From contig OY969425.1 in assembly GCA_963699255.1 (NCBI GenBank), positions 960,001 through 992,000 of the forward strand: a stretch of DNA of 32,000 nucleotides, given 5' to 3'. A program made the position numbers and the translations under genes. The DNA is from an uncultured bacterium. Its GTDB lineage: Bacteria > Margulisbacteria > WOR-1 > CAVSGV01. The notes beneath the pieces are model-generated. The model saw only the letters and a list, made by a program, of their open reading frames with translations. It searched no databases and was not told where the DNA came from. Positions 9,221 through 30,047 of the stretch are shown in pieces; positions within the stretch are counted from its first letter, which is position 1; each line of letters begins with the position of its first letter.

Positions 9221-9242
9221 CTTGGTCGGAACGGGAGATTAT

Positions 9243-9506: not shown

Positions 9507-9549
9507 CTGATATCCCCCCTTTACATATGTATTCTTACATATATTAAGT

Positions 9550-11936: not shown

Positions 11937-14171
11937 ATGTCAGAATCAAGCGTCATGCTTCCGTTGTTAGGGGCTCTGGAGAACAATCTTCTGTGGATGG
12001 TATTCGGGTCGGCGATAATCGCGCTTCTTTACGGGGCGTACCTCGCCTGGAAGGTCTTGAAGGCTCCGCAGGGGTCGCAGGCCATGATCGACGTGTCAAA
12101 AGCCATCCAGCAGGGTTCGGCAGCTTACCTCGCCCGCCAGTTCAAAGTGATGGGCATCATCATATTTTTACTGACCATAGGTCTGTATTTAATGTACAGG
12201 CCGATCTATACCAATAATCCGTTCCTGCCGATCGGCATAGCGGGCGCTTTCCTGCTGGGTTCCATGGCATCGGCCGGCGCAGGTTTTGTGGGAATGAACC
12301 TGGCCGTACGCGCTAATGTGCGCGTGGCCAACGCGGCCCTGACCAGCTATAAGAAAGCCCTGGAGATCGCCTTCCAGGCCGGCACAATATCCGGCATGTT
12401 CACCGTAGGGCTTGGATTGCTGGGAGCCACCATCATATTCATGATATTCAAGCAGGATGCCATGAAGGTCCTTATCGGTTTCGGTTTCGGCGGCTCGCTG
12501 GTCGCTCTCTTTATGCGCGTCGGCGGCGGCATCTTCACGAAAGCGGCTGACGTAGGCGCAGACCTGGTCGGCAAAGTCGAGAAGAACATTCCGGAAGACG
12601 ATCCGAGGAACGCGGCGGTCATAGCCGACAACGTCGGCGACAACGTCGGCGACTGCGCCGGCATGGCAGCCGACGTTTTTGAGAGCTACGAAGTGACCCT
12701 GGTCGCGGCGATCATACTTGGCGCGGGGCTCCTGCTCGACAGCGGCTTCAAGGCGTTCTACGGGGCGGGCGCGGCGGCCATGGCTCTGAAGCTTATCCTT
12801 TATCCTCTATTGGTCCGAGCGGTCGGGGTTTTCGCGTCGATCATCGGGACACTGCTGGTGCGCGGCAAAGACACCGAGGAGATCGGCGATCCCATGCAAT
12901 CGATCAATTTCGGCTTCTGGGCGGCGTCCATAACCGCGACGATCGGTTTCGGCGCGGTCAATTATTTTTATCTTAAGGATTGGCGATTTTTCTTCGCGAC
13001 CCTGACCGGGATCATCCTGGCGATCGTGATCGAATGGATAACGAATTACTTCACTCACACGTCAAACCGTCCGGTCCAGGAAACAGCTTACGCGTCAAAG
13101 ACCGGCCCGGCGACACTCCTGCTTTCAGGTTTCGGCCTGGGCAAGGAATCTTCTGTCTGGGCGATCCTTGCCATTGCCGCGACTATATTCGTATCAACAA
13201 GCATTTTCGGCGGGAACATAGGGCTCTCGGCTTACGGCATAGCCCTGGCGGGACTGGGGCTTTTAACGACCACCGGCTTTATCCTGGCCGAAGACACTTT
13301 CGGGCCGATCTCGGATAACGCCAGCGGAATTTTTGAAATGTCCGGCGCCAACAAAGGTGCCGGCAAACGCGCGCAGGAAATAACGATCAAGCTCGACGCG
13401 GTCGGGAACACGACCAAAGCCCTGACAAAAGGTTTTGCCATAGCCACGGCGGTCATCGCGGCCATCGCGCTGTACAGGTCATTTATCTCCGAAGGCGGGC
13501 TCCTGCTAACGGGCATTCAGCTCAATATGCCGGATGTATTCATCGGCCTGCTGATAGGAGGCGCTGTGCCGTTCCTTTTCTCTTCGCTATTGATAAACGC
13601 GGTCGGACGCTCCGCTTTCTTCGTGGTCGAAGAGGTCCGTCGCCAGTTCAGGGAGATCCCCGGGATCATGGAAGGCAAAAATAAGCCGGAGTACGACAAG
13701 TGCGTGGACATCGTGACCATCGCCGCGCAGAAAGAGCTGGTCGGTCCGGTAATAATCGGGGTTTGCACCCCTATCGCCGTCGGTTTCGGCCTGGGCGTCG
13801 CGGCGCTCGGCGGCTATCTGGCGGGCACTATACTTGTCGGACAGCTTCTCGCGGTCATGCTCTCGAACTCCGGTGCGATCTGGGATAACGCCAAGAAGGT
13901 AATTGAGATGGGCGCGCACGGGGGCAAAGGCAGCGAGTGTCACAAGGCGGCGGTCATCGGCGATACGGTCGGCGATCCATTCAAAGATACGGCCGGTCCG
14001 GCGCTCAACCCGTTGATCAAGGTAATGAACCTGGTATCGATCCTGATCCTGCCGCTTCTTCTTCTCGGATTTGATATAAAGATCCGTTTGGGCATCGTGA
14101 TCGTTTGCGTTCTTCTGATCATTTTCGCGCTCTGGCTGTCGAAAAAAGAAGGGATAATGACCGAGCGATAA
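11937..14171 (+). CDS. hppA: Membrane-bound proton-translocating pyrophosphatase, K+-independent type
   Basis: 744 aa, polytopic. Canonical motifs GGGIFTKAADVGADLVGKVE and DNVGDNVGDCAGMAADVFESY. GNTTKA (Lys where K+-dependent enzymes have Ala) indicates the K+-independent subfamily. Confidence 0.95.
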   Translation: MSESSVMLPLLGALENNLLWMVFGSAIIALLYGAYLAWKVLKAPQGSQAMIDVSKAIQQGSAAYLARQFKVMGIIIFLLTIGLYLMYRPIYTNNPFLPIGIAGAFLLGSMASAGAGFVGMNLAVRANVRVANAALTSYKKALEIAFQAGTISGMFTVGLGLLGATIIFMIFKQDAMKVLIGFGFGGSLVALFMRVGGGIFTKAADVGADLVGKVEKNIPEDDPRNAAVIADNVGDNVGDCAGMAADVFESYEVTLVAAIILGAGLLLDSGFKAFYGAGAAAMALKLILYPLLVRAVGVFASIIGTLLVRGKDTEEIGDPMQSINFGFWAASITATIGFGAVNYFYLKDWRFFFATLTGIILAIVIEWITNYFTHTSNRPVQETAYASKTGPATLLLSGFGLGKESSVWAILAIAATIFVSTSIFGGNIGLSAYGIALAGLGLLTTTGFILAEDTFGPISDNASGIFEMSGANKGAGKRAQEITIKLDAVGNTTKALTKGFAIATAVIAAIALYRSFISEGGLLLTGIQLNMPDVFIGLLIGGAVPFLFSSLLINAVGRSAFFVVEEVRRQFREIPGIMEGKNKPEYDKCVDIVTIAAQKELVGPVIIGVCTPIAVGFGLGVAALGGYLAGTILVGQLLAVMLSNSGAIWDNAKKVIEMGAHGGKGSECHKAAVIGDTVGDPFKDTAGPALNPLIKVMNLVSILILPLLLLGFDIKIRLGIVIVCVLLIIFALWLSKKEGIMTER

Positions 14172-14234: not shown

Positions 14235-15470
14235 TTAATGGTTCACGCCGTTTTCTTTCTTAAATTGAGCGACCAGAGCCGGGATATCCAGATACGCGCG
14301 CATCGAATCCGTACAGCAGAAGAATTTTTTCGCGTTCTTATCCACGTATTTTTTTATCGCGGGGAAATCGTCCTGAAGTTTCAGCAGCTGGACCATCGCC
14401 TCTTTCATTAAGAACATCTTGATAAGTTTCTTTTCGTCTCCCGTGGCGCCGTCGTGATCAAAAAAGCGGGACAGGGGCTTTTCCAATACCTGATAATAGA
14501 AAGGATCCACAAAACCCCTGAAATGTTGCATGGTGTCGATCTTTGCCGCCGCAACATACGAATATGTCCTGAGGACAAGCGGATCGTCCGCCCATGTAAG
14601 CGCTTTCAGGTTCTTTATATATTGTCCGTATTCACCCGCAAAACAGACGTATTTATCCACATTAGATAAATAGGCTGCTCCAATCTCCTTTTTTACGTCC
14701 GAGCCGGCTTCAGACATCGCCTGATTAATGACTCTCGAGACTTTCCTGTCCGCGATATTCCCTTCTATGATCGCAATGTCATTATTTATTGCCCGCTCTC
14801 GCAGATAATTGAATGATTCCATGGTGAACAGCCACTCGTTCTGGTAAGGCTTAAGGGACGTCTCCCCTGTCCAAATATGAAAGAACGAATACAGGAATAT
14901 ATCCCTCAGGAATCTTTTTTCAGGGTTGGTCAACATTTCCGTTAACAGGGCGAATTCTTCCGCGTCTTTTATTGCACCCCTTGCATACTGGAGATTTTTC
15001 TGGGCTATCATCATATTACCACAACCCTCGTTTTTTATGGGATCGCTGATATCAAAAATATGCTTCGAGATCGCGCTCAAGAGTTCGTTATCATCCTGAA
15101 TGGCAATGTTTCGTGCCTCCTTGATGAGCATGGCGCTTTTTGCAAAAGCAAGGAATTCAAAAGGATTCTTTGTGATCTTTAATAATGTCTTTATCGCCGA
15201 AAGGTGGTCGGCAACATCAACGGAAACATCCACTATTATCGATTTCTGCGGCTTAATTTTGCATATGTGATCGAAGTTCTGATGGCTGCCGATCCCTAAA
15301 TATATCCCTTTTGTCTCCCTCTGACCATAAGTAAATCCGGACAATCTTTCATTGGAATGGATGTCTCCAAATCCCCCGCTTTCAAACCCCACCGTACATC
15401 CCGGCGGACGTATCTTCTTAATATAAGCGGGAGCCTTTATTCTCGTAACCGCCTTTGAAAATATGCTCAT
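14235..15470 (-). CDS. Hypothetical 411-aa cytoplasmic protein, no confident family
   Basis: Long ORF with normal composition and no TM or signal peptide. N-terminal ...YLGIGSHQNFDHICKIKPQKSIIVDVS... has a Rossmann-like strand-loop-helix flavour. Function unknown. Confidence 0.6.
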   Translation of the reverse strand: MSIFSKAVTRIKAPAYIKKIRPPGCTVGFESGGFGDIHSNERLSGFTYGQRETKGIYLGIGSHQNFDHICKIKPQKSIIVDVSVDVADHLSAIKTLLKITKNPFEFLAFAKSAMLIKEARNIAIQDDNELLSAISKHIFDISDPIKNEGCGNMMIAQKNLQYARGAIKDAEEFALLTEMLTNPEKRFLRDIFLYSFFHIWTGETSLKPYQNEWLFTMESFNYLRERAINNDIAIIEGNIADRKVSRVINQAMSEAGSDVKKEIGAAYLSNVDKYVCFAGEYGQYIKNLKALTWADDPLVLRTYSYVAAAKIDTMQHFRGFVDPFYYQVLEKPLSRFFDHDGATGDEKKLIKMFLMKEAMVQLLKLQDDFPAIKKYVDKNAKKFFCCTDSMRAYLDIPALVAQFKKENGVNH

Positions 15471-15635
15471 GATATCTTCTTATCGATAAAATCAATGAAA
15501 AATCCCACTTTTCACAGCGGATCCCCGCGCGAAGCAACACTACTGGTCAGAAAAGCCATGCCTCCAAAACAATGCAAGTTTACGGCGCCATCTCCCGATA
15601 TATATCATGGAAGATGAAGCAAAGGAGATGTGCAA

Positions 15636-15887
15636 ATGAGCGGATCAATAAGCGGATTATCCTTAAATTCCAGTACCGCAATATCAAGTGCGCAAGACGA
15701 GACGAATTTATTCGATGCGATCAACAGCATCGCCACAAGTTCATCGTCAGATTCGGATTCGGATGCTATTGATTCCATGGCTTCATCCCTGAATAGTTCA
15801 GCGCCATCCAGCACAAGCACAAGCGGTACCAGCTCTGTATCAAATCCCTTTTCAACTTCGGGGACGATAACGAACACCATAGCTTAG
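15636..15887 (+). CDS. Hypothetical Ser/Thr/Asp-rich acidic small protein (83 aa), no Cys
   Basis: ATG 15636 lies 9 nt after SD AAGGAG. MSGSISGLSLNSSTAISSAQDETNLFDAINSIATSSSSDSDSDAIDSM... is low complexity. The mirror ORF on the other strand has a worse SD. Could be non-coding. Confidence 0.35.
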   Translation: MSGSISGLSLNSSTAISSAQDETNLFDAINSIATSSSSDSDSDAIDSMASSLNSSAPSSTSTSGTSSVSNPFSTSGTITNTIA

Positions 15888-15944
15888 GAACGCCGCTCCC
15901 TCGTTTTGCTCATGCTCCCGCCGAAAAAACCAAAACGCCTTCAA

Positions 15945-15973
15945 TTTACATTGCTTATTTTATTCACTATAAT
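15945..15973 (+). promoter_or_regulatory. Near-consensus sigma-70 promoter positioned for a leaderless rpoN mRNA
   Basis: TTTACA (15945-15950), 17-nt spacer, TATAAT (15968-15973), then GCCCAC, then ATG at 15980. No SD is present. Confidence 0.5.
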
Positions 15974-15979
15974 GCCCAC

Positions 15980-17347
15980 ATGAACAAACTGGGGCTCGGA
16001 TATGAACTTAACCTCTCAAATACGCTTGAGCTGATGCTCTCGCCGCGCATGATCCAGATGCTCAGGATGCTGAACCTCTCCTATGTGGAGCTTGTGGAGG
16101 AGATAGAGAAAAGATCCGAAGAGAACGTGATGCTGGAGCTGGAACACCCGGACAGGCTGCTGGAATACCTGAAGCACATAAGCACCGAGAGGATATCTAA
16201 AAAGGAGATCCCTTATGAAGAGCTGCCGGGAATAGAGAGCCTGGCCGACACGGCAGAGACCCTTGAGGACCACCTCCTCAAGCAGCTTGATCTTGAAGAG
16301 CTGAATGAAAAGAAAAGAAAGATCGCTGAATTCATCATAGGCAGTATCGACACGAGAGGTTATCTGCAGAATTACGAGCAGATCAGCGGAGCGATAAAAA
16401 AGGAACTGGGCGCGAGCCAGAATGAGATAGACAGCACGCTGGAGGTGATCCAGGATCTGGAGCCGGATGGCGTGGGAGCAAGGGCCCTGAAGGAATGCCT
16501 CCTTATACAGGTAAGGGAATACAACTTTGAAAGCGAAGAACTGGAAGATTTGCTGACAAAGGCGATAGAGGACCACCTGGATGACTTCGCGGAAAAGAAA
16601 TTCGACAGGATCGCGAAAGCGCTGAAGATCGGAAGGGACGGCGCCGAAAAGCTCGCCGAGTTCATAAAGAACAACCTCAATCCCAACCCGGGATCGATGT
16701 TCGCCGAGAGGCTTCCCTGCGTGATCCCTTCTTTTTCGATCGTAAAAGAAAAGGACAAATACAAGGCCGTTAACCTGGAAAAGACCTACGGCCCGTCGCT
16801 CAAGATCAGTCCCGTGTATGAAAAAATGCTGAGAGACCCGAAAACCGACGCGAAGAGCCTTGAATTCCTGAAGGAAAAACTTGAAGCGGCAAAGGATTTC
16901 CTGGAGAACATCGCGAAACGGCATGAAACGATCGAAAAAATACTTGACCTGATAATCGCGGCCCAGAGCGGATCTTTTGAAGGCGGCAAGCTTAAGTTGA
17001 ACCCTCTTATGCAAAAGAACATCGCAAAGGACCTCGGCCTTCACCCGTCCACCATCTCAAGGGCGATCGCGAACAAATATATACAGACCCCCCGCGGGAT
17101 CATCCTCCTGAAAACCCTCTGCCCCCGGGAGATAAAAGGCACGACCGGCGAAAAGATCCATAAGCTTATACAGGTCATCATCGATTCGGAAGACAAAAAA
17201 GATCCGCTGACGGACGAGGAGATAGCCGAAAAGCTGAAGAGCGACGGCCTGTACCTTGAGAGAAGGACCGTGGCTCTGTACAGGAAAAAGCTGGGATTTG
17301 AAATAGCTTCGAAAAAGAGTGAAATTTTAAGTCGGAACATACGATAA
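15980..17347 (+). CDS. rpoN: RNA polymerase sigma-54 factor
   Basis: 455 aa. Region I LELMLSPRMIQMLRMLNLSYVELVEEI, HTH ...HPSTISRAIANKYIQTPRG..., RpoN box RRTVALYRKKLG. Confidence 0.93.
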   Translation: MNKLGLGYELNLSNTLELMLSPRMIQMLRMLNLSYVELVEEIEKRSEENVMLELEHPDRLLEYLKHISTERISKKEIPYEELPGIESLADTAETLEDHLLKQLDLEELNEKKRKIAEFIIGSIDTRGYLQNYEQISGAIKKELGASQNEIDSTLEVIQDLEPDGVGARALKECLLIQVREYNFESEELEDLLTKAIEDHLDDFAEKKFDRIAKALKIGRDGAEKLAEFIKNNLNPNPGSMFAERLPCVIPSFSIVKEKDKYKAVNLEKTYGPSLKISPVYEKMLRDPKTDAKSLEFLKEKLEAAKDFLENIAKRHETIEKILDLIIAAQSGSFEGGKLKLNPLMQKNIAKDLGLHPSTISRAIANKYIQTPRGIILLKTLCPREIKGTTGEKIHKLIQVIIDSEDKKDPLTDEEIAEKLKSDGLYLERRTVALYRKKLGFEIASKKSEILSRNIR

Positions 17348-17398
17348 TATAGCGTCAAAACACCTATTCGCAAGGCCTTGACGGAAGCGGGAGAAAAA

Positions 17399-18832
17399 AT
17401 GACCGACGGTAAAGCAGACATATTGATAGTTGAAGATGAAAAAAACGTAAGAGCCGCGCTCTCCCTTGCTCTCTCGGATAAATACAACCTCTTTTCGGCA
17501 TCCGACGGGAAAAAGGCCCTCGAAATGATCTTTGAAAGGAACATCGACCTGGTGCTTCTGGACATAAGGCTTCCCGAAGTGAACGGGATGGACGTCCTTA
17601 AACAAATAAAGGACATGAGCAGCTCGATCCCGGTGATAATGCTTACGGCAGTCAGGACCGTTGATTCCGCCGTATCAGCCATGAAGCTCGGCGCCTACGA
17701 TTACGTGATAAAGCCTTTTGACATAAACGAACTGATGGCGCTGATCGAAAAAGCGCTTGAAAAAAGGAACCTTGAAAAGGAGAACGTTTTTCTGAAGAAC
17801 GAGCTTGAGAAGACCGGCGGCTTTGAAAAGATCATAGGCATGAGCGAGAAAATGAGGGAAATTTTCAAGCTGATAAAAAGCGTGGCGAGAGGCGACGCAA
17901 CGGTGCTTATCACAGGAGAGTCCGGGACCGGCAAGGAACTTGTCGCGAGGGCGATACACCACCAGAGCAAGAGGGCAAAAAAACTGTTCGTCCCGGTGAA
18001 CTGCGCGGCGATCCCCGAGAACCTTCTCGAGTCCGAGCTCTTCGGCTATGAAAAGGGCGCTTTTACGGGGGCGTATGAGCGGCGTCTGGGTAAATTCGAG
18101 ATCGCCAACGGCGGAACGATATTCCTGGATGAGATAAGCACAATGCCGCTCCCAATGCAGGCAAAGCTACTCAGGGTCCTTCAGGAGCGCGTCATAGACA
18201 GGGTGGGCGGCACGATCCAGGTAGAGATCGACGTGAGAGTGATCTCCGCCACGAATTCGGACCTTAAACAGGAGGTCGACAACAAAAAATTCAGGGGCGA
18301 CCTGTTCTACAGGCTTAACGTGATCCCGATGGTCATCCCTCCGCTCAGGGAGCGAACGGAAGACATACCTCTGCTGGTGAACTATTTCCTTGATAAGTAC
18401 AACAAGGAGTTCGGCAAAAAGATAAAAGAGTTCGACGCTGATGCCATGCACGTTCTCACTTCCTATCCCTGGCCGGGCAACGTCAGGGAACTGGAGAACC
18501 TGATAGAGCGGCTCGTGGTCCTGAGCGACAGGAACATTATCACAAAAGACAAGCTCCCTCCCGAGATATACAAAAAGCTGATGGACGAACACGCGAAAAG
18601 ATTCGAAATGGACTTCATAAAACAAGCCATACAAAAATCCAACTTGAACGAACGGCAGCTGAAAGCGATAGAACTCGTCAAAAGCCAGGGGAAGATAACG
18701 AAGCAAACCTATATCAAGCTGACCAACACCCCGAAAACCACTGCTTTCAGGGACCTGCATACGCTCGTAAAGCTCCACATATTGACCCAGAAAGGCATCG
18801 GAAAGAGCTCCTGCTACACGCTCTCGGATTAG
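17399..18832 (+). CDS. Sigma-54-dependent response regulator (NtrC-type bEBP) with atypical winged-helix C-terminal domain
   Basis: Start at ATG 17399 (SD GGGAG; the track uses an upstream TTG). REC domain (VEDE..., [16 protein letters not shown]). Intact AAA+ core: [36 protein letters not shown]. The C-terminus [59 protein letters not shown] is not a Fis-type HTH. Confidence 0.9.
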
Positions 18833-18854
18833 CGCCCGGAATCCAGTCCACTTA

Positions 18855-18895
18855 GGACCGCAAACGGACCGCAAAACGGACCGCAAAACGGAAAC
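18855..18895 (+). repeat. Tandem direct repeat GGACCGCAAA(A)C x3 plus a partial unit
   Basis: GGACCGCAAAC (18855-65), GGACCGCAAAAC (18866-77), GGACCGCAAAAC (18878-89), GGAAAC (18890-95). Non-coding, 23 nt after the bEBP stop. Confidence 0.85.
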
Positions 18896-18930
18896 TCATC
18901 ATATTTACCCGCGTCCATTATGGCTTTATT

Positions 18931-18946
18931 TGGTATGATAATTGCT
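18931..18946 (+). promoter_or_regulatory. Putative sigma-54 (-24/-12) promoter
   Basis: TGGTATGATAATTGCT has GG and GC at exact consensus spacing (TGGYA-N6-TTGCT). It lies 54 nt upstream of ATG 19000. Confidence 0.55.
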
Positions 18947-18999
18947 ATATAATAGATGGAACCAATGTTTAGGCACGATCCTATAAAGGAGTGATCTAC

Positions 19000-19401
19000 A
19001 TGGCAAGGCTTGAGCCCGGTGAGCAGAATGAACAAAAAGAGATGAACCCGAAGTTCCTTTCCGTGATCCTTGACAGGGATTTCCAGAAACAGCAACTCGA
19101 GGAAAAAGACAGATCAAAGGTGGAGCTGTTCGAGCGCGGGCTCGCGTGTGAGCTATTAACGTCCGATACCATCGACAGGTCCGTGGAAAAGATAGTGAAA
19201 ATGGCCCTTGCCTGCGAATTCGGCGCGGAGCTGGTAACAAAACCGGCCGCAAAAAAAATGGTCTCCGTTATAAGCCGCGGCATCCTGTCGGACAGGGATC
19301 TGAGGAGATCCGCTCTTATCATAGCCGACAGGTTCGCGACCAGCAGGAAGACCAAGATCGTGCCTCTTAGGGGGAAGGGAAAGTCCGTGATAAATGGCTG
19401 A
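19000..19401 (+). CDS. Hypothetical 133-aa protein, translationally coupled to the degenerate bEBP
   Basis: ATG 19000 behind SD AAAGGAG (the track starts at an upstream GTG). MARLEPGEQNEQKEMNPKFLSVILDRDF...; predicted helical and soluble. Its 3' end overlaps the next start by 8 nt. Confidence 0.6.
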   Translation: MARLEPGEQNEQKEMNPKFLSVILDRDFQKQQLEEKDRSKVELFERGLACELLTSDTIDRSVEKIVKMALACEFGAELVTKPAAKKMVSVISRGILSDRDLRRSALIIADRFATSRKTKIVPLRGKGKSVING

Positions 19402-20698
19402 TATTAAACCAGTAATACTTGTCGTCGATGACGAAACGAACATAAGAGAATCTTTCACCCTCATTCTGGAGAAAGAATTCAATGTGATCACCGCCGCCTC
19501 AGGAGAAGCCGCGCTTAAAAGGATCATAGACGAGAAGGTCGACCTGGTATACCTCGACATAAGAATGCCGGGAATGAACGGCATGGAAACGCTTAAGAGG
19601 ATAAAAGAAATAGACAGCAGCATTGAAGTTATAATGGTCACCGCACTGAATGACGTTGGAGGCGCGGCCGCCGCGATCAAGCTCGGGGCCAAAGATTACA
19701 TCGTAAAGCCTTTCGACGTGAAGGATATCCTGAACAGGACGAGAAGCTTTGTGATAAAAGCCCAGACAAAAGCCATAAAGCCGCCAATGGAGGATGAACT
19801 GATAGGCAACAGCAGGCAGATCCAGAACATAAGGAAAGTTGTGGAGCAGCTATCGCAAAAGGGCTCTTCCGTACTGATCATCGGGGAGAAGGGACTCGAA
19901 GCCGAACAGATCGCCGCGATCGTGAACGGCGAATCCGAAAAGGAACTGAAGAAGCTGGACGCGTCTTCCGATCTCGGAAGTTGGGTCCTTTTTGGGCGCG
20001 AGAAGGGTTCTTTCACGTCTGAGTTCGAAAAAGAAGCCGGCATGCTGGAGGAAGCGAACGGTGGCATACTGTTCATAAGGAACATAGAACTCCTTCCCAT
20101 GGACGTTCAGAAAAAGCTGGGACAGGCGCTTTCAAAAAAAGAATTTTCCCGCGACGGCTCCTCTGCGGCGATACACGTGGACTTGAGGGTTATAGCGGAA
20201 ACATCCGCAGATCCGGCTGAACTCATAAAAGAAGGCAGCTTTGACAGGGACCTTTATAACGCCATAAGCAGAACGGTGATCGAGCTGCCTCCGCTCAGGA
20301 TGAGGGAAAGCGACATACCGATACTGATAAACCACTATGTTGATAAATTTTCGATCAAATACGACAGGCAATTAAAAGTATCCCCCGAAGCCCTTGAAAT
20401 ACTCGCGGGCTATCCATGGCCCGGGAATCTGGCCGAGCTGTCGAACGTTATAGAGGCGATCATGCTGTCGAGCAAAAAGGAAGTGCTGGAACCGGACGAT
20501 CTCCCCCTGGATATCCTGATAAAAAGCCCCGCCGGAGGAAGGCCATTCACGACGCTTGAGAATATCGAAGGAAAGTTCGAAAAAGCCCATATCCTTAGCG
20601 TTTATAAAAAAGCCGGGGAAAGCAAAGAGAAGGCTTCGGCAATGCTCGGTATAGGGCTGAAGACCCTGGAATCCAAGCTTGAATCGATCAACGCCTGA
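19394..20698 (+). CDS. bEBP-like response regulator with degenerate AAA+ domain (predicted ATPase-dead, sigma-54-contact loop lost)
   Basis: REC domain intact (VVDDE, LVYLDIRMPGMNG, KPF) and Fis-type HTH intact (KEKASAMLGIGLKTLESKL). Colinear with the neighbouring bEBP, but Walker A GESGTGKE is GEKGLEAE, GAFTGA is GSFTSE, Walker B FLDEI is FIRNI, and sensor-[10 protein letters not shown] is GNLAELSN. Confidence 0.85.
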   Translation: MADIKPVILVVDDETNIRESFTLILEKEFNVITAASGEAALKRIIDEKVDLVYLDIRMPGMNGMETLKRIKEIDSSIEVIMVTALNDVGGAAAAIKLGAKDYIVKPFDVKDILNRTRSFVIKAQTKAIKPPMEDELIGNSRQIQNIRKVVEQLSQKGSSVLIIGEKGLEAEQIAAIVNGESEKELKKLDASSDLGSWVLFGREKGSFTSEFEKEAGMLEEANGGILFIRNIELLPMDVQKKLGQALSKKEFSRDGSSAAIHVDLRVIAETSADPAELIKEGSFDRDLYNAISRTVIELPPLRMRESDIPILINHYVDKFSIKYDRQLKVSPEALEILAGYPWPGNLAELSNVIEAIMLSSKKEVLEPDDLPLDILIKSPAGGRPFTTLENIEGKFEKAHILSVYKKAGESKEKASAMLGIGLKTLESKLESINA

Positions 20699-21354
20699 TG
20701 GCCTCAAGACTTATCCCGATAGACCTCCTTATCCTTGACTTTGACGGCACGCTTACGGACTCGATCCCGCCCGCGGTCGCCGCGATACAGAAAATGCTCA
20801 AAAAACTGGGCCTTCCCTACAGATCAAAGAAAGAGATCAATGAACACGTCGGCTACGGAGAGCCCCCGCTTCTTGAAGGGTCAACAGGTTCCAAAGACCC
20901 GGAGCTGCTGAAGAAAGCGATGAGCACCTATGAGAAGATATATATGAAAGAAGGGATCAAAAAAGTCACATTATATCCCCACGTGAAGGGATTCCTTGAA
21001 TATTTCAAAGATAAGCCAAAAATTATCGTTTCCAACAAAAAAGATCTTTTCATAAAAATGATACTCAAGAACCTGGGGTTGACGAAGTATTTTAAAGAAA
21101 TTCATGGAGGGGATACCCTGCCCTGCCTTAAGCCGGACCCGCACGCGATAAACATCATGATAAAGAAATACCGGGTTTCGAGGAATCGGGTGTTGTTCAT
21201 CGGGGACATGACGGTGGACATCGAGACCGGAAAGAACGCGCATGTGCGCACATGCGCTGTGACCTACGGATTTGACAGCGTGAGCAAATTAAAGAAGCAC
21301 AAGCCTGATATCCTGATCGATAATCTGATGGAGCTGAAGGATCTGATAGAATGA
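20698..21354 (+). CDS. HAD-superfamily hydrolase, phosphoglycolate-phosphatase-like
   Basis: Motif I ILDFDGTLTDS, motif II IVSNK, motif III/IV K...FIGDMTVDIETGKNA. TGATG overlap with the preceding gene. Confidence 0.85.
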   Translation: MASRLIPIDLLILDFDGTLTDSIPPAVAAIQKMLKKLGLPYRSKKEINEHVGYGEPPLLEGSTGSKDPELLKKAMSTYEKIYMKEGIKKVTLYPHVKGFLEYFKDKPKIIVSNKKDLFIKMILKNLGLTKYFKEIHGGDTLPCLKPDPHAINIMIKKYRVSRNRVLFIGDMTVDIETGKNAHVRTCAVTYGFDSVSKLKKHKPDILIDNLMELKDLIE

Positions 21355-21355
21355 A

Positions 21356-21440
21356 TGCCCAGAGTCGGACTCGAACCGACATGACCTATTCGGTCAAGGG
21401 ATTTTAAGTCCCTCGCGTCTACCAATTCCGCCATCCGGGC
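21356..21440 (-). tRNA. tRNA-Leu (anticodon UAA)
   Basis: Hand-folded cloverleaf: acceptor GCCCGGA/TCTGGGC plus discriminator A, D arm GCG-GAATTGGTAGA-CGC, anticodon arm AGGGA-CTTAAAA-TCCCT, long variable arm GACC-GAAT-AGGTC, T arm GTCGG-TTCGAGT-CCGAC. CCA is not encoded. Confidence 0.9.
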
Positions 21441-21465
21441 TGGTAAAAGAAAGCGGCCGGAGCTC

Positions 21466-21912
21466 CTAAAACTTCTTGGGTTTCTTGCCTTCCTGTTTTA
21501 CCTGTATGTTCCGCTTCCAATCAAGCAGTTTTTCTTCGCTCTGTTTCAGGAAATTGGTCATCTTTTCCTCGAAAGAATTGGAGAATTTCCTCGGTTCGCG
21601 CCTTTCATATCTCCTTGGGCCGCCCGCCGGGCCGCCCGCCGACTGGCCGGGCCTGTCGAATTTCTTCTCTTCCCGCTTCTCCAGCTGCTTTATCGAGAGG
21701 TCATACTTGCCGTCCTTGGTCACGCCTATGACCCTTACCTTAACGGTGTCCCCTACTTTTAAATGCTGGGCCACGTCCGTGACATAAGTGTTCGATATCT
21801 GCGAAATATGGATAAGCCCCACGTTCCTTTCGCCAAGATCAACGAACGCGCCGAATTTCATGATGCCCGTCACGCGTCCCTCAACGATACTGTCAACTGC
21901 TATAGACCCCAT
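21466..21912 (-). CDS. S1 RNA-binding domain protein (YabR-like)
   Basis: N-terminal S1 fold VEGRVTGIMKFGAFVDLGERNVGLIHISQISNTYV...VGDTVKVRVIGV, basic disordered tail. The order ftsB/divIC, S1 protein, tRNA mirrors the Bacillus divIC-yabR-tRNA arrangement. Confidence 0.85.
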   Translation of the reverse strand: MGSIAVDSIVEGRVTGIMKFGAFVDLGERNVGLIHISQISNTYVTDVAQHLKVGDTVKVRVIGVTKDGKYDLSIKQLEKREEKKFDRPGQSAGGPAGGPRRYERREPRKFSNSFEEKMTNFLKQSEEKLLDWKRNIQVKQEGKKPKKF

Positions 21913-23589: not shown

Positions 23590-24285
23590 TCACCATATCA
23601 AAATTGAAACAATTGCCCCCAAAGCGAGGAAAGGCGCGAACGGAATATAATCCTCCCTGTTCAGCTTTTTCAGCAGGATTAGCGCTATGCCCGCTGCGGC
23701 TCCGGTCAGCGAAGCGAAGAGAACGGATAGAAGCGTCCTCTCGATGCCGAGATTTGCCCCGAGCATGATAAGCAGCTTTATATCCCCGTCGCCCATCGCC
23801 TCTTTTTTTAACGCGTATTTTGCCGCCGACGAGATCAGGAACATGAACGAAAAACCGAAACAAGCGCCGGTCAGGCTTTCGATAAAGTTGCCGCTATAAG
23901 CCGAATACGCGAGCCCCGTGCCGATCCCGATCAGCATCAGGAAATCGGGGATCACCATGTGTTCAATGTCAATAAAAGAAATAAGGACCAGCAGGATCGA
24001 GAATATTAAAATAGCGGCGAACCGGACTGAAAAACCCACCTTTAGATAGAAGATCAATAACAGCGCCGCGGTCAGGGCTTCAACAACAGGATAGCGGATG
24101 GATATCTTTTCCCCGCAATATCTGCAGCGGCCGCGAAGGATCAAATAACTGATCAGGGGAATAAGGTCGTAAGCTCTCAAAGTTGACTTGCATTTCGGGC
24201 AGTGGGACGGCGGGTAAACGATCGATCCCTCTTCAGGGATCCTGGAAATACATACGTTCAGAAAACTTCCCGTAACAAGGCCCAA
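23590..24285 (-). CDS. pilD: Prepilin peptidase / N-methyltransferase (A24 family); true start probably upstream of the TTG at 24285
   Basis: GSFLNVCISRIP, Zn-knuckle CPKC...CRYC, catalytic Asp motifs DIEHMVIPD and GDGDIKLL. The frame stays open upstream and encodes the missing half of TM1 (IKVETAAIYSLIIV), but it contains no ATG, GTG or TTG. Confidence 0.9.
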   Translation of the reverse strand: MGLVTGSFLNVCISRIPEEGSIVYPPSHCPKCKSTLRAYDLIPLISYLILRGRCRYCGEKISIRYPVVEALTAALLLIFYLKVGFSVRFAAILIFSILLVLISFIDIEHMVIPDFLMLIGIGTGLAYSAYSGNFIESLTGACFGFSFMFLISSAAKYALKKEAMGDGDIKLLIMLGANLGIERTLLSVLFASLTGAAAGIALILLKKLNREDYIPFAPFLALGAIVSILIW

Positions 24286-24340
24286 AACAATTATTAGTGA
24301 GTAAATCGCTGCCGTTTCTACTTTAATGCCGCCTCTTTTC

Positions 24341-24369
24341 TTGACTTTACCAGCAAATAAATATATATT
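24341..24369 (+). promoter_or_regulatory. Sigma-70-type promoter of the cheY-like/pilB/pilC operon
   Basis: TTGACT (24341-24346), 17-nt spacer, TATATT (24364-24369). Confidence 0.55.
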
Positions 24370-24399
24370 AGTATATCTTTGAAGTCAAATCCGTCTTGA

Positions 24400-24419
24400 C
24401 CTGCCTGCCGGCAGGCAGG
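24400..24419. promoter_or_regulatory. Perfect 20-bp GC-rich palindrome in the operon leader
   Basis: CCTGCCTGCC|GGCAGGCAGG is a perfect inverted repeat, 13 nt upstream of ATG 24433. Its 3' arm overlaps the only purine-rich SD candidate (AGGGG). Confidence 0.8.
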
Positions 24420-24432
24420 GGCAGAAAGATCT

Positions 24433-24786
24433 ATGAAAAAAATCCTAGTGGTGGACGACGAGGAAAGCGTAAGAATCATATTAAAACAGATGCTTGAAAA
24501 GGGCGGCTACAGCGTTGAGGTCAGGAGCGACGGAGAGGAAGCGCTGGGGGCGCTAAAAAGCGGCCGTTTTAACATGCTTATCACCGACATTAATATGCCG
24601 AAAATGAACGGCATTGAACTCCTTTATAAAACAAAAGAAGAGTTCCCCGCCATGCCTGTGGTCTTTATCACCGCTTACGGAAAAGACAAAACGATAATTG
24701 AGGCAATGAAAATGGGGCTCTCCGATAACATAGAAAAACCGTTCAGGATGGATGATGTCCTGAAGACCGTTAAAGACCTCATTTAA
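24433..24786 (+). CDS. Single-domain CheY-like response regulator
   Basis: 117 aa. VVDDE, phospho-acceptor context MLITDINMPKMNG, TAYG, KPF. No output domain. Confidence 0.9.
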   Translation: MKKILVVDDEESVRIILKQMLEKGGYSVEVRSDGEEALGALKSGRFNMLITDINMPKMNGIELLYKTKEEFPAMPVVFITAYGKDKTIIEAMKMGLSDNIEKPFRMDDVLKTVKDLI

Positions 24787-24803
24787 AGAAGGGACGTGAG
24801 CAG

Positions 24804-26501
24804 ATGCCCGTCAGGCAAAGAAAATCCCTCGGGGAAAGCCTTGTTGAACAAAAGATAATATCCGAAGAGCAGCTCAGGACCGCCGTAAAAGAAAGCGAGA
24901 ACAGCGGCGAACCGCTGAGAAAAACGCTTGTAAAGACCGGATTGGTCTCTGAAGAAGACATCTGCGGCTTCTTTGAGGAACAGCTAGGGATCCCCAGAAT
25001 AGACCTGAAAAATTACCTGATAGATCAAAAGATACTTTCGCTGATCCCCGAAAGTCTCGCCAAGAAATACAACCTGATCCCGCTTTTCAAGACCGGGGAT
25101 ACCCTGACGATAGCCACCGCCGACCCTCTAAATGTCGTGGCTATGGATGAGATCAGGATAAAGACCAAAAGCAACATTGAACCCGCGGTGGCGACAGAAA
25201 CCGAAATAAGGAACTCGATAAACCAGTATTACGGGGTAGGCGGCTCCATAGAAGACATCATCAGGAGCATTGACATAAAATCGCTCGCCATAGATGAAGG
25301 CAAGGAAGAAATAGAGCCGGAAAAGCTGAAAAATATCGCGGAAGAAGCGCCCATAATCAAGCTTGTGAACCTGATAATCCTTCAGGCGATAAGGGATAAA
25401 GCTTCCGATATTCACGTGGAACCGGAAGAGGACAGCCTGCAGATCAGGTTCAGGGTCGATGGGATCCTGCATGAGCAGGCCACCATCCCGAAACAGATGC
25501 AGGCGGCGGTGCTTTCCAGAATGAAAATAATGTCCGACATGAACATCGCGACAAAAAGGATCCCTCAGGACGGAAGGTTCAGGTTGAACATAGAGGGAGG
25601 ACAGATAGATATGAGAGTGTCATCCCTCCCGACCATCTTCGGCGAAAATATCGTGATGAGGCTTCTTGATACGACAAGCATACTTATCGGTCTGGAAAGG
25701 CTGGGCTTTGACGAAAAAAACCTTGAAAAATTCAAGTCCCTTATCGTCAAACCGCACGGGATAATCCTTGTTACGGGTCCTACAGGTTCCGGGAAAACAA
25801 CGACGCTGTATTCCGCTTTGAACACCATAAACACTCCGGACAAGAACATCATTACGGTCGAAGATCCGGTGGAATATCAGCTGAAAATGATCCGCCAGTC
25901 GCAGATAAACCCGAAAGCGGGGCTTACTTTCGCGACGGGACTGCGTTCGATCTTAAGGCAGGATCCGGACGTAATAATGGTCGGTGAAATAAGGGACCTG
26001 GAGACGGCTGAAATATCGATCCAGGCGGCGCTGACCGGGCATCTGGTGTTTTCCACCCTTCACACGAACGATGCCCCCAGTTCGCTGACCAGATTGACCG
26101 ACATGGGGGTTGAACCTTTCCTTATATCCTCTTCCGTGATCGGGATCATCGCCCAGAGACTTGTAAGAACGATATGTCCGTCCTGCAAGCAATCCTATAC
26201 CCCTTCCAAGGAGGCCCTTGATGATATAGGCGTAACACTTCCGGAAGGACCGCTGAAGTTCTACAGGGGCGCCGGATGCAAGGTCTGCAAGAACACCGGA
26301 TACAAAGGCAGGATAGGGATATTTGAAATGCTCCTGCTTGATGACAAGATCAGGGACCTGATCCTTGCCAAAACCTCGAGTGCTCAGATAAAACACCTGG
26401 CGCAGGAATCCGGCATGAAGACGCTGCGCGAGGACGGGGTCGTAAAAGTGCTCGCGGGCGCTACCACGATAGATGAAGTTATCAGGGTAACTCAGGAATA
26501 A
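24804..26501 (+). CDS. pilB: Type IV pilus assembly ATPase (PilB/GspE family)
   Basis: 565 aa. N-terminal T2SSE_N/MshEN-like domain, Walker A GPTGSGKTTTLY, VGEIRD, HLVFSTLHTND, tetracysteine CPSC...CKVC. Confidence 0.93.
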   Translation: MPVRQRKSLGESLVEQKIISEEQLRTAVKESENSGEPLRKTLVKTGLVSEEDICGFFEEQLGIPRIDLKNYLIDQKILSLIPESLAKKYNLIPLFKTGDTLTIATADPLNVVAMDEIRIKTKSNIEPAVATETEIRNSINQYYGVGGSIEDIIRSIDIKSLAIDEGKEEIEPEKLKNIAEEAPIIKLVNLIILQAIRDKASDIHVEPEEDSLQIRFRVDGILHEQATIPKQMQAAVLSRMKIMSDMNIATKRIPQDGRFRLNIEGGQIDMRVSSLPTIFGENIVMRLLDTTSILIGLERLGFDEKNLEKFKSLIVKPHGIILVTGPTGSGKTTTLYSALNTINTPDKNIITVEDPVEYQLKMIRQSQINPKAGLTFATGLRSILRQDPDVIMVGEIRDLETAEISIQAALTGHLVFSTLHTNDAPSSLTRLTDMGVEPFLISSSVIGIIAQRLVRTICPSCKQSYTPSKEALDDIGVTLPEGPLKFYRGAGCKVCKNTGYKGRIGIFEMLLLDDKIRDLILAKTSSAQIKHLAQESGMKTLREDGVVKVLAGATTIDEVIRVTQE

Positions 26502-26512
26502 GATAATTCAGC

Positions 26513-27727
26513 ATGCCAACTTTTTCCTATAAAGCGAGAGACGAAACCGGCAAGCCGATCTCCAGCATAATGGAAGCGTCAAATAAAGATGCCCTTGCCT
26601 CAAGGCTGCAAAAGCTCAAGTACACGGTCATCTCAATTTCCGAAAAAGCGATCCCGTTCACAATAGATAAGTTCCTGCGAAGGTTCACCAGAGTAAAGAT
26701 CAATGACCTGGTAATGTTCAATGTTCAACTTGCCAATATGATAGGCGCCGGGATCCCGTTGCCATCGAGCCTTATGACCCTTTCGGAACAGATCGAGAAC
26801 GAAAGATTAAAGGATGCCGTAAGCGACGTATATAACGAGATAAAGGGAGGCCAGACCTTCGCTGACTCCTTAAAAAAACATCCCGATATTTTCCCCCCGC
26901 TTTTCACGAACATGATACATGCCGGCGAGGTCGCCGGGAACCTGGATGAAATATTGAACAGGCTGGCGACATTCGTGGAACACGAATCGGAGCTGAGGCA
27001 AAAAATAACCACGGCGCTGTTTTATCCGATGATCCTTGCCGTATTCGGCACTGCCGTCGTGGTGTTAATTATTGTTACTATACTTCCCTCTTTCGCCAAA
27101 ATATTCATCGAAGCTAATGTTCCGCTGCCGCTGCCGACAATGGTGCTTTATAACCTGAACCTGGTAATAAGGGCTTACTGGAAGCATATTATTGTGGCGA
27201 TTGCAGCGCTGTTCTTTCTCGCGAGGTGGTACAAAAGGACCCCGACCGGGAAATATTACCTGGACAGCGCCATGCTCAATATCCCTGTCTGGGGAAAACT
27301 GATAAGGGAGTCAACGGTCGCCCGCCTCACAAGGACACTTGCGTCGCTCATTTCAGCCGGCGTCCCGATGCTGCAGTCACTTGAGGTAACGGAGAAGACA
27401 ATAGACAACTCGATAATCTCCGGGGTTCTGAAGGACGTATATTCATCGGTAAGCAAAGGCGAGACTATTTCAGAACCGCTAAGGAAAAGCGGCCAGTTCC
27501 CGGCTATGCCCATCCACATGATAGCCGTTGGTGAAGAAACCGGTGCACTGGATACAATGCTCAACAAAGTTGCCGATTATTACGACATGGAAACAGAATA
27601 CAGCATAAAAAGGATCACTTCGCTTCTTGAGCCTATTTTTCTGGTCATTATCGGCGGTATGGTGGGATTCATTTTTGCATCTATACTGCTGCCCATATTC
27701 CAGATGGTGAAGACGCTGAAACACTAG
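26513..27727 (+). CDS. pilC: Type IV pilus platform protein (PilC/GspF family)
   Basis: 404 aa. Two GspF-type repeats, three TM segments, typical N-terminus MPTFSYKARDETGK.... Confidence 0.93.
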   Translation: MPTFSYKARDETGKPISSIMEASNKDALASRLQKLKYTVISISEKAIPFTIDKFLRRFTRVKINDLVMFNVQLANMIGAGIPLPSSLMTLSEQIENERLKDAVSDVYNEIKGGQTFADSLKKHPDIFPPLFTNMIHAGEVAGNLDEILNRLATFVEHESELRQKITTALFYPMILAVFGTAVVVLIIVTILPSFAKIFIEANVPLPLPTMVLYNLNLVIRAYWKHIIVAIAALFFLARWYKRTPTGKYYLDSAMLNIPVWGKLIRESTVARLTRTLASLISAGVPMLQSLEVTEKTIDNSIISGVLKDVYSSVSKGETISEPLRKSGQFPAMPIHMIAVGEETGALDTMLNKVADYYDMETEYSIKRITSLLEPIFLVIIGGMVGFIFASILLPIFQMVKTLKH

Positions 27728-27827
27728 AGGAGCTAGAAGAACTAGATGTTAAGAGGTGAAAAGGTTGAGAAGAAAAAGAGGAAGGACCTCTTTACCTCTT
27801 CCACTTTTAGCTCCCCTAGCTCTTCTA
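27725..27827. repeat. Purine-arm/pyrimidine-arm imperfect palindrome between pilC and pilT
   Basis: The left end TAGAGGAGCTAGAAGAACTAG (27725-27745, which includes the pilC TAG stop) matches the reverse complement of 27807-27827 at 16/21. The left half is almost pure A/G and the right half almost pure C/T. Confidence 0.5.
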
Positions 27828-27831
27828 ATTC

Positions 27832-27859
27832 TTGCGTATTATTATTACGGTAGTATAAT
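27832..27859 (+). promoter_or_regulatory. Possible sigma-70 promoter for pilT
   Basis: TTGCGT (27832-27837), 16-nt spacer, TATAAT (27854-27859). There is no obvious SD before ATG 27880. Confidence 0.4.
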
Positions 27860-27879
27860 GTTTTTCGTCTCTGGTACAT

Positions 27880-28926: not shown

Positions 28927-28949
28927 CATTTCGTCCCGTTATAATATAA
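28922..28949 (+). promoter_or_regulatory. Consensus sigma-70 promoter of the major pilin gene
   Basis: TTGACA (28922-28927, overlapping the pilT stop), 16-nt spacer, TATAAT (28944-28949). Followed by SD AAAGGAGGGGGTGA. Confidence 0.6.
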
Positions 28950-28974
28950 TGTAAAAAAAGGAGGGGGTGAAAAA

Positions 28975-29427
28975 ATGAAAACAAGCAAAGGCTTTACTCT
29001 TATCGAGTTACTCATAGTCATGGCGGTCATAGCCATATTGATCGCTATAGCGATCCCTAGCTTCAGAGGCATGCAGCAGGAAGCAAGGAAGACAAAGGCT
29101 CAGGGCGACGTCAGGGTAATAAAGATTGCTATCGAATCTTACTACAAGAATCATAACAATCAATACCCGGCTACTGGAGTCGACTACCAGACAACACTGC
29201 AAAACGCTGTACCAAGGATACTTGAAGGAACGTTGAACGATCCTTTCAGCGTAGGTGCAAATGTGCCTTATCAGTATGCTCTAAGCGGTGCAGACCCAAC
29301 GAGTTCCGATTACTATATCATATGGTCAGTCGGACCGAATCAATCAGCTGTACCGGCCACAGTGTCAACATCAGGCATTGTTACGGCAACAAATGAGGTG
29401 ATCTGGGAATCGAACGGTCACATGTAA
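28975..29427 (+). CDS. Type IV pilin / GspG-like pseudopilin (probable major subunit)
   Basis: Class III signal MKTSKG|FTLIELLIVMAVIAILIAIAIPSF with Glu at +5. The globular part, with ...DPFS...YQYAL...YYIIWSVGPN, resembles GspG/PilA-type subunits. Confidence 0.88.
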   Translation: MKTSKGFTLIELLIVMAVIAILIAIAIPSFRGMQQEARKTKAQGDVRVIKIAIESYYKNHNNQYPATGVDYQTTLQNAVPRILEGTLNDPFSVGANVPYQYALSGADPTSSDYYIIWSVGPNQSAVPATVSTSGIVTATNEVIWESNGHM

Positions 29428-29457
29428 TCACGGAATGTCTTTAAAGACATGTTGATT

Positions 29458-29492
29458 TAAAGGGAGCTGACTAGTCGGCTCCCTTTCTTTTT
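29458..29492 (+). terminator. Rho-independent terminator after the pilin gene
   Basis: Stem AGGGAGCTGAC / GTCGGCTCCCT (29461-29484) followed by TTCTTTTT. Confidence 0.8.
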
Positions 29493-29641: not shown

Positions 29642-29675
29642 GGTAATTGATTTTCCTTTGTGTTATCATTTCTTC

Positions 29676-30035: not shown

Positions 30036-30047
30036 GGAGCTCACACA

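Follow-up and report, generated by a model that had tools for sequence, protein, structure and literature searches.

We analysed a 32,000-nucleotide stretch of genomic DNA from an uncultured bacterium of the WOR-1 lineage of Margulisbacteria (contig OY969425.1, positions 960,001 to 992,000; below, 'the window', with coordinates counted from its first nucleotide), in which the gene for sigma-54, rpoN, lies next to two paralogous genes for bacterial enhancer-binding proteins (bEBPs), the obligatory ATP-driven switches of sigma-54 transcription. The order of genes, all on the plus strand, is rpoN, a canonical bEBP gene (17378..18832; ACT), a 160-nucleotide gap, a small open reading frame (ORF), a second, degenerate bEBP gene (19394..20698; PSE, for pseudo-bEBP) and a HAD-family hydrolase gene. 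Judged by its sequence, PSE is a catalytically dead paralogue of the adjoining sigma-54 activator, and one that is under selection. What appears new here is a lineage-wide PSE signature, a conserved cassette, a putative sigma-54 promoter with a matching candidate upstream activator sequence (UAS), and a presumptive orphan partner protein.

PSE has lost the motifs of a sigma-54 activator

The PSE gene is an open frame with an ATG start that encodes 434 amino acids (the end coordinate includes the stop codon). The protein consists of a receiver (REC) domain at residues 8-115, an AAA+ domain at 136-295, a lid at 302-379 and a weak Fis-type three-helix C-terminus at 388-432. Pfam recognized the first three as Response_reg (8-115, 3e-29), Sigma54_activat (PF00158; 136-295, 7.6e-31) and AAA_lid_14 (302-379, 1.9e-21). 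The comparison with the Sigma54_activat profile, which had been suggested in the original prediction (a reading of the window from its letters), gave 107 bits for PSE and 246 bits for ACT. In BLASTP, PSE and ACT are colinear, with 36% identity across 394 amino acids (E=2e-85).

As can be seen from this alignment, the Walker A motif GESGTGKE of ACT is GEKGLEAE in PSE, the P-loop Gly being replaced by Glu and the Lys by Ala, and the 'ExxxR' that follows Walker A reads EQIAA in the window protein. The GAFTGA sequence of the L1 loop has become GSFTSE, Walker B has changed from FLDEI to FIRNI, sensor I from SATN to AETS, and sensor II from GNVRELEN to GNLAELSN. Five substitutions (Walker A, GAFTGA, Walker B, ATN and the sensor Arg) had been listed in the original prediction, and all of them are seen in the BLASTP alignment against ACT. 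The same prediction had called the ORF intact and the Asp pocket of the receiver preserved; the frame is indeed open over its full 434 amino acids, and VVDDE, LDIRMP, MVTA and VKPF are all present in PSE. Absent from its list was the loss of both trans arginine fingers, where FRGDLFYRL of ACT is FDRDLYNAI in PSE. With these changes PSE is without every residue that ATP binding and hydrolysis, the activation of a neighbouring subunit in trans, and contact with sigma-54 require, and its ATP binding is predicted to be lost. Of the six testable features that define a functional bEBP, PSE retains one, the AAA+ type and fold, and lacks five; it should therefore not be filed as a 'sigma-54-dependent transcriptional regulator'.

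The degeneracy is shared by a whole family

A database search found 1553 homologues of PSE at E<=1e-10. About 112 of the best 120 relatives (37-100% identity) share the degeneracy, and five canonical proteins stand apart from them. Where these relatives are named, they belong to Candidatus Margulisiibacteriota, Saganbacteria or WOR-1, with one Omnitrophota label. We also used an independent sample of 77 metagenome loci, which were found through the small ORF and not through PSE, and which contain 48 full-length PSE copies. The same pattern of degeneracy was present in 48 of these 48 copies. Every copy (100%) retains the catalytic residues of the receiver (D, D, D~P, T and K) and has Glu in place of the second Gly of the P-loop. 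The catalytic Glu of Walker B is found in 0% (Asn in 77%, His in 16%), both arginine fingers in 0%, the sensor II Arg in 0% and the sensor I Asn in 8%. The Walker A Lys is kept in 62% of the copies; it is lost in the clade of the window and retained in a distant clade with the sequence GEAGTEKE, so that the family signature reads GExGxE[KA]E. The first position of Walker B is still Asp in 33%.

The Phe and Thr of GAFTGA are required for the contact with sigma-54. In the PSE family this loop is highly variable (Phe 29%, Thr 68%, the second Gly outside the three commonest residues), and the Phe and Thr are not conserved together. In the 26 ACT orthologues, by contrast, each of these motif positions is canonical in about 100%. 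Conservation is also distributed differently along the two proteins: mean identity in the receiver is 0.68 among PSE proteins versus 0.61 among ACT proteins, whereas in the AAA+ domain it is 0.44 versus 0.70. Neighbour-joining trees unite the degenerate proteins in a single clade, apart from their ACT neighbours and from canonical bEBPs. The pair thus goes back to an ancient duplication, after which its two lineages diverged in parallel.

PSE is under purifying selection and keeps its fold

We estimated omega (dN/dS, the ratio of nonsynonymous to synonymous divergence) by the method of Nei and Gojobori (NG86) on codon alignments of the pairs formed by the window and loci L088 and L089; comparisons with L090 and L002 were left out, as their dS was saturated (>1.5 or undefined). 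For the whole PSE gene omega was 0.128 (dS 0.40), 0.098 (dS 0.94) and 0.116. By domain, the receiver gave 0.05-0.07, the dead AAA+ alpha/beta core 0.12-0.14, the lid 0.10-0.17 and the C-terminus 0.04-0.12. For comparison, omega in these genome pairs was 0.05 for ACT, 0.147 for rpoN, 0.127 for the HAD gene and 0.07 for enolase; the value for PSE is thus similar to those of rpoN and the HAD gene. The small ORF gave 0.10-0.13. We met no frameshifted or truncated PSE: the homologue is open in 65 of the 65 loci with enough downstream sequence.

An AlphaFold model of PSE, built on an 80-sequence alignment, has a mean predicted local distance difference test (pLDDT) score of 87. Its AAA+ domain superposes on those of FleQ and NtrC1 with template modelling (TM) scores of 0.88-0.90 and root-mean-square deviations of 2.4-2.6 A, and the best full-length structural match of the model is NtrX (Foldseek E=1e-34).

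The original prediction had argued that PSE is a maintained, phosphorylatable pseudo-ATPase rather than a decaying gene. It had proposed a dN/dS comparison, and had named frameshifts or neutral drift among orthologues as signs that would speak for decay. The comparison shows purifying selection (omega about 0.10-0.13), which extends to the dead AAA+ core, and no frameshift was met, the frame being open in 65 of 65 loci. Taken with the completely conserved receiver residues and the intact fold, the results support the argument.

Receiver and C-terminus of PSE

Across 80 family members D12, D13, D55, T83, K105 and the switch residue Y102 are invariant. The receiver helix alpha1, usually the face on which a kinase docks, is nearly invariant as well (LSIRESFSLIL), unlike the variable alpha1 of ACT.

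The opposite end of the protein is less clear-cut. For full-length PSE, Pfam reported no helix-turn-helix (HTH) family HTH_8 (PF02954) at E<=0.01. When the C-terminal 70 amino acids were searched in isolation, PSE scored 17.5 bits with HTH_8, below the Pfam cut-off of 22, compared with 20.7-35.8 bits for its orthologues, several of which exceed the threshold, and 36-55 bits for canonical relatives. The recognition helix of PSE reads LKTLESKLE, versus LRTLYRRLK in NtrC1 and the canonical HRNTL, so that basic and polar residues that contact DNA have been replaced. Throughout the family the contacts R, N/T, R and K have given way to L/K, E, S, E or to variable residues, and many members end directly after a short third helix. 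In the AlphaFold model of PSE the C-terminus forms three helices. The original description of the HTH as intact therefore holds for the Fis type and for the three predicted helices, but not for the profile score or the contact residues. The fold of this domain would seem to be kept, while DNA binding by it is doubtful.

PSE is coupled to a small orphan protein

The small ORF (19000..19401, + strand) encodes an all-alpha protein of 133 amino acids when read from the ATG at 19000; an alternative GTG start is at 18991. Its stop overlaps the start of PSE by 8 nucleotides, and the two genes are translationally coupled. In all 65 of the 65 informative loci PSE is the next gene after the small ORF, usually with an overlap of 4-26 nucleotides, and the small-protein family is restricted to the PSE lineage, where it is always encoded immediately upstream of PSE. 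The small protein is 47-94% identical across eight loci, with family lengths of 110-133 amino acids. It has 330 homologues, all unnamed or hypothetical, with 74 representatives among 1.84e9 proteins. Searches of Pfam, NCBIfam and PDB sequences gave noise only. Its AlphaFold2 model has an entirely helical core with pLDDT >87, for which Foldseek gave no PDB match at E<=0.001. The invariant residues are charged (K40, E45, D56, K64, E73, R102 and D110). We considered a histidine phosphotransfer (Hpt) protein and rejected it, as there is no invariant His; no Spo0E-type match was found for the small protein either.

A sigma-54-type promoter with matching candidate activator sites precedes the pair

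In the gap after ACT we found a sigma-54-type promoter, TGGTATGATAATTGCT (18931..18946, + strand), with a -24 GG and a -12 TTGC element in GG-N10-GC spacing. The motif GG[CT][AGT]N6T[TG]GC[TA] was found at the equivalent place in all eight of the loci compared at the outset. It also precedes the small ORF/PSE pair in 64 of 70 metagenome loci (consensus TGGCAATAAnnTTGCT), whereas 0.027 matches per 320-nucleotide search region would be expected from the background frequency of the motif in this DNA. In about 0.95 Mb of related loci, 60 of the 68 matches to a stricter sigma-54 motif that are followed by an ORF are the promoter of the small ORF/PSE pair. A consensus scan of positions 15400-21600 gave no sigma-70 site on the plus strand before the small ORF. 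We also considered an extended -10 sigma-70 promoter, with a TATAAT-like element just 3' of the -12 element, and rejected it as the main reading, because GG and TTGC are conserved at the exact spacing and the sigma-70 scan is empty there.

Upstream of the promoter, three direct repeats GGACCGCAAA(A)C (18855..18895, + strand) can be read from the sequence as a candidate UAS for ACT. We compared the clade of the window (L091-L107) with a distant clade (L108-L166). In the former, wherever ACT has a C-terminus of the winged helix-turn-helix (wHTH) type, repeats of the form GGACCG[CA]AAA(A)C occur at this same position; this wHTH-like domain, at 18590-18832 in the window, replaces the Fis-type HTH. 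In the distant clade, ACT carries a canonical Fis HTH (LLGIHRNTL), and the repeats are replaced by palindromes TTGCACA-N6-8-TGTGCTAA. The type of UAS tracks the type of ACT DNA-binding domain in all loci inspected, and it looks as if the DNA-binding domain of ACT and its operator were swapped jointly. We infer that ACT may bind these repeats and drive sigma-54 transcription of the small ORF/PSE operon. A conserved sigma-54 promoter with an ACT-matched UAS in front of the pair means that PSE appears to be made under sigma-54/ACT control.

The palindrome persists even where the operon is not adjacent to rpoN and ACT: the TGCACA..TGTGCTAA element was seen in L144, L149, L155 and L163, which are loci of this kind. 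Four of the five loci away from rpoN/ACT keep the strict sigma-54 motif, and L132 has only a looser GG-N8-TTGC.

The only other strict motif in the 32 kb is a second near-consensus sigma-54 -24/-12 element, TGGCAATATTATTGCT, at 6689-6704 (+ strand). It lies upstream of a hydrophobic mini-ORF of about 30 codons (6738..) and of a gene for an amino-acid permease with a C-terminal P-II domain (6899-8764), which hints that the local sigma-54/bEBP pair may have a nitrogen-related target.

The cassette and its neighbourhood

The rpoN gene (15980..17347, + strand) was identified by its Pfam domains Sigma54_AID, Sigma54_CBD and Sigma54_DBD; orthologues place its likely start at 15998 (449 amino acids). 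It is preceded by a candidate sigma-70-type promoter, TTTACA-17-TATAAT (15945..15973, + strand), which rests on a consensus match (11/12) and is the best such match within 15400-21600; rpoN and ACT thereby have a candidate promoter apart from that of the small ORF/PSE pair. ACT is a canonical REC-AAA+ bEBP with all motifs canonical, and its likely start is at 17399 (477 amino acids). Its non-Fis, wHTH-like C-terminus gave only weak matches to the HTH domains of IclR and DeoR. The HAD-family hydrolase gene (20698..21354, + strand; Pfam HAD_2, 5e-32) has a start that overlaps the stop of PSE (ATGA). It also follows PSE in L002, L088-L090, L092, L095, L096, L098, L099, L101, L104 and L106, and does not do so in the distant clade; the operon probably includes it, as a third gene, in the clade of the window only.

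The four-gene core of rpoN, ACT, small ORF and PSE recurs on long contigs at 90, 75, 61, 44, 40 and 39% identity, with differing outer flanks, and rpoN comes first in the cassette in L002, L003, L004, L006, L088 and L090. ACT lies directly upstream of the small ORF/PSE pair in 26 of 31 metagenome loci and in six of six long contigs, and rpoN is present in 25 of the 31 metagenome loci whose upstream sequence extends for 3.3 kb or more. The distribution of the cassette seems to be wide among Margulisiibacteriota-type bacteria and limited to them. No dedicated kinase gene is conserved beside it in the loci compared.

Downstream of the cassette, a type IV pilus cluster (23590-30612) encodes a prepilin peptidase, a single-domain receiver, PilB, PilC, a PilT-like ATPase and several pilins. 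It is close to the cassette in the window, L002, L004 and L088-L090, and not in L003 or L006. We considered that the ACT/PSE pair might act like PilR and dropped the idea, as no sigma-54 motif was found before the nearby type IV pilin genes. Between a DUF7790 gene and rpoN, two antiparallel Ser/Asp-rich ORFs of 85 and 91 amino acids (15605-15887) are probably low-complexity non-coding sequence; in L088 a 123-amino-acid minus-strand gene is called at this place. The G+C content per kb along the window ranges from 0.42 to 0.58, with 0.58 in the H+-pyrophosphatase gene (11937-14171), and positions 1-3000, 7001-10000 and 12001-14000 contrast in G+C with 6001-7000 and 29001-30000.

Discussion

The reading that we favour, with somewhat less than even confidence, makes PSE a modulator whose action on the sigma-54 circuit is gated by phosphorylation; its most probable form is that of a feedback subunit. 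Phosphorylated ACT, together with sigma-54, would switch on the synthesis of the small protein and of PSE. PSE itself would be unable to remodel the sigma-54 holoenzyme. It may co-assemble with ACT via its AAA+/lid scaffold, and, as it would supply neither an arginine finger nor an L1 loop, it would damp the activity of the ring. The co-translated small protein would be a stoichiometric partner of PSE. More speculatively, the invariant Glu of the P-loop may take the place of the phosphates of the nucleotide, or may offer a docking site to the partner's arginine fingers; a residue that was gained and has been conserved calls for a positive role. That the AAA+ domain and the lid are under selection, though catalytically dead, counts for a modulator. 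So does the precedent of HrpR/HrpS/HrpV (PMC3105312), in which tandem bEBP paralogues form mixed hexamers, one partner is partly degenerate, and a small inhibitor binds the AAA+ domain in trans. The position of PSE behind a sigma-54 promoter and beside ACT suggests that it most likely tunes the circuit rather than activating genes itself. Autonomous DNA binding by PSE seems unlikely, given the replaced contacts and the short third helix. Moreover, PSE has kept a Fis-like C-terminus while ACT has swapped its DNA-binding domain and UAS, which argues against PSE being a simple competitor for the sites of ACT.

Several observations weigh against PSE as a modulator of ACT. Contact between the two proteins is at this point a proposal, and a simple test for gene conversion or for co-variation through a shared partner gave no excess of matched ACT/PSE residues within genomes (z=-0.75 for REC, z=-1.5 for AAA+ and z=+1.8 for the lid). 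Some members of the PSE family have deletions inside the AAA+ domain, which could disturb the assembly of a ring. The small ORF/PSE operon lies away from rpoN and ACT in five of the 31 loci (L132, L144, L149, L155 and L163). The nearly invariant alpha1 helix of PSE, unlike that of ACT, points to a partner or kinase of its own and not to competition for the kinase of ACT. Finally, if the small ORF/PSE operon is the main sigma-54 target, PSE may look like an output of the circuit rather than its brake. A more specific form of the idea, which we regard as unlikely, makes PSE a poison subunit: with its P-loop plugged by Glu, it would imitate a subunit loaded with nucleotide and trap the arginine fingers of ACT. 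Mixed rings would then form independently of nucleotide, gated by the phosphorylation of PSE itself, and give negative feedback or a pulse of expression. In that case the cassette may be a self-contained three-part circuit, composed of sigma-54, of ACT, and of sigma-54-induced PSE with its orphan partner.

The main rival explanation, which we consider possible but rather doubtful, is that PSE is an autonomous factor of the atypical enhancer-binding protein (EBP) kind, such as VpsR, NtrX, HupR or TyrR, which is made in a sigma-54/ACT cascade and which, when phosphorylated, regulates sigma-70 promoters without ATP, forming dimers or oligomers on DNA through its Fis-like C-terminus. This would fit the finding that the small ORF/PSE promoter is almost the sole sigma-54 promoter near the cassette, as expected of an output, and the own, invariant alpha1 surface of the PSE receiver. 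Structurally the PSE model comes closest to NtrX, the C-terminal domain is constrained (omega 0.04-0.12), several orthologues pass the HTH_8 threshold, and the atypical EBPs include a protein without detectable ATPase, VpsR (PMC6158489). However, the DNA-contact residues are replaced, the recognition helix is truncated in many members, and the window PSE itself, at 17.5 bits, stays under the 22-bit cut-off. Known atypical EBPs keep a site for nucleotide or cyclic di-GMP (c-di-GMP), whereas the P-loop of PSE is plugged by the invariant Glu, and an autonomous factor leaves no role for the obligatorily coupled small protein. It is still less probable that PSE is a phosphate sink that drains the kinase of ACT, its AAA+ domain and C-terminus being kept for stability or dimerization only. 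The receiver is indeed the most conserved part of PSE, with 100% of its catalytic residues retained, sigma-54-dependent expression of a sink would give delayed negative feedback, and no dedicated kinase gene is conserved beside the cassette. Yet a lone receiver would suffice for such a role, whereas PSE is full length throughout the lineage, with AAA+, lid and C-terminus under selection (omega 0.10-0.17). The docking helix alpha1 is unlike that of ACT and the two proteins show no within-genome co-variation, while the invariant P-loop Glu and the coupled small protein would go unexplained.

Two further views of PSE fare worse. That PSE is still an ATPase and sigma-54 activator, working through non-canonical residues such as Asn or His in place of the catalytic Glu, might be argued from the intact fold, from the Walker A Lys present in 62% of the family (GEAGTEKE in the distant clade) and from the Asp at position 1 of Walker B in 33%. 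We hold it to be very improbable, since the window PSE has neither the Walker A Lys (GEKGLEAE) nor either of the Walker B acids (RN), no family member (0%) has the catalytic Glu, either arginine finger or the Arg of sensor II, and the Phe and Thr of GAFTGA are not conserved together. The loss of all catalytic motifs might equally be expected of a pseudogene decaying after a tandem duplication, to which we give next to no credence. An omega of about 0.1, a frame that is open in 65 of 65 loci, membership of an ancient monophyletic family, invariant positions that include the newly gained P-loop Glu, and a fold modelled with high confidence exclude it.

Known atypical relatives of the bEBPs have lost the sigma-54 contact loop, mostly keep their ligand site and act as ordinary DNA-binding regulators. 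Here, throughout a lineage, purifying selection maintains a paralogue that is fully dead, lies beside its active sister, is preceded by a sigma-54 promoter and comes with a coupled orphan protein. Should PSE indeed act on ACT, a bEBP ring would for the first time be known to be regulated by a natural pseudo-enzyme, and PSE would make a clean bacterial case of a dead paralogue regulating a live one, comparable to pseudokinases and to eukaryotic AAA+ assemblies. The locus would also provide a defined sigma-54 promoter/UAS pair for an uncultivated phylum, and an example of an activator DNA-binding domain and its binding site swapped together. Since PSE-type proteins are now labelled 'sigma-54-dependent transcriptional regulator', AtoC, NtrX or PilR, the results call for a warning on their annotation. 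In the literature that we searched, which did not cover all journals, we found neither such a pseudo-bEBP mechanism nor a description of sigma-54 in Margulisbacteria.

Comparison with known systems

The closest solved sequences to PSE are NtrC1 and NtrC4 of Aquifex aeolicus (PDB 4l4u, 1ny5 and 3dzd; E=1.8e-57), followed by NtrX and LuxO. NtrC1 and NtrC4 share the three-domain layout, and in PSE, REC and AAA+ are linked by a long helix alpha5 like that of NtrC1-type activators under negative regulation; they differ in being fully active sigma-54 activators with every motif intact.

By its homology to EBPs and its degenerate GAFTGA, PSE can be placed loosely among the atypical EBPs, a class that comprises TyrR, PhhR, HupR, HsfA, NtrX and VpsR (PMC6158489). 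NtrX of Brucella abortus (PDB 5m7n, 5m7o and 5m7p) is likewise a REC-AAA+-HTH response regulator without a functional GAFTGA, and binds DNA as a repressor (PMC6158489). The titles of its entries show that it crystallizes with ATP and ADP, and it thus keeps nucleotide binding, which PSE is predicted to have lost. Among NCBIfam models, PSE scored 224.7 bits with NtrX (cut-off 600) and at best 263.8 bits with AtoC (cut-off 714), and no model reached its cut-off. VpsR of Vibrio cholerae (PDB 7v2b) also has the REC-AAA+-HTH layout and no GAFTGA, and the Walker B acids are replaced: the motif reads ND, and no ATPase was detected (PMC6158489). In contrast to PSE, VpsR binds c-di-GMP and DNA, activates sigma-70 RNA polymerase, is not sigma-54-dependent, and has neither an active paralogue nor rpoN as its partner. 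The two proteins are distant (E=1.5e-23, compared with 1.8e-57 for NtrC1), and PSE has in addition lost the P-loop, sensor I, the arginine fingers, sensor II and the basic helix contacts. The statement in the original prediction that atypical EBPs usually keep nucleotide binding accordingly agrees with the ATP and ADP entries of NtrX, with VpsR (ND, no ATPase; PMC6158489) as a partial exception. PSE as a whole differs from the class in its lost nucleotide site, in its doubtful DNA-contact residues, and in being tied to rpoN, ACT, a sigma-54 promoter and an orphan partner.

The HrpR/HrpS system of Pseudomonas syringae offers a parallel in its arrangement. HrpR and HrpS are tandem bEBP paralogues that form a mixed hexamer; HrpS has reduced ATP binding, and HrpV, a small unrelated protein, binds the AAA+ domain of one paralogue and controls its activity (PMC3105312). 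The two systems, counting HrpV/HrpG, thus share tandem paralogues of which one is degenerate, a small unrelated protein, and regulators that lie within the circuit they regulate. However, HrpR and HrpS both keep catalytic and GAFTGA motifs, contact sigma-54 and are without receivers, whereas PSE has lost all motifs, PSE and ACT both carry receivers, PSE stands behind its own sigma-54 promoter, and a hetero-oligomer is here a proposal. The small protein, for its part, has no detectable sequence or fold in common with any known family. With the anti-activator pairs PspA/PspF, HrpV/HrpS and FleN/FleQ, the shared feature is one of logic only, a separately encoded damper that is expressed from the circuit it regulates. 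PspA, HrpV and FleN are not homologues of bEBPs, whereas the candidate damper here would be a dead bEBP with a receiver and an orphan partner.

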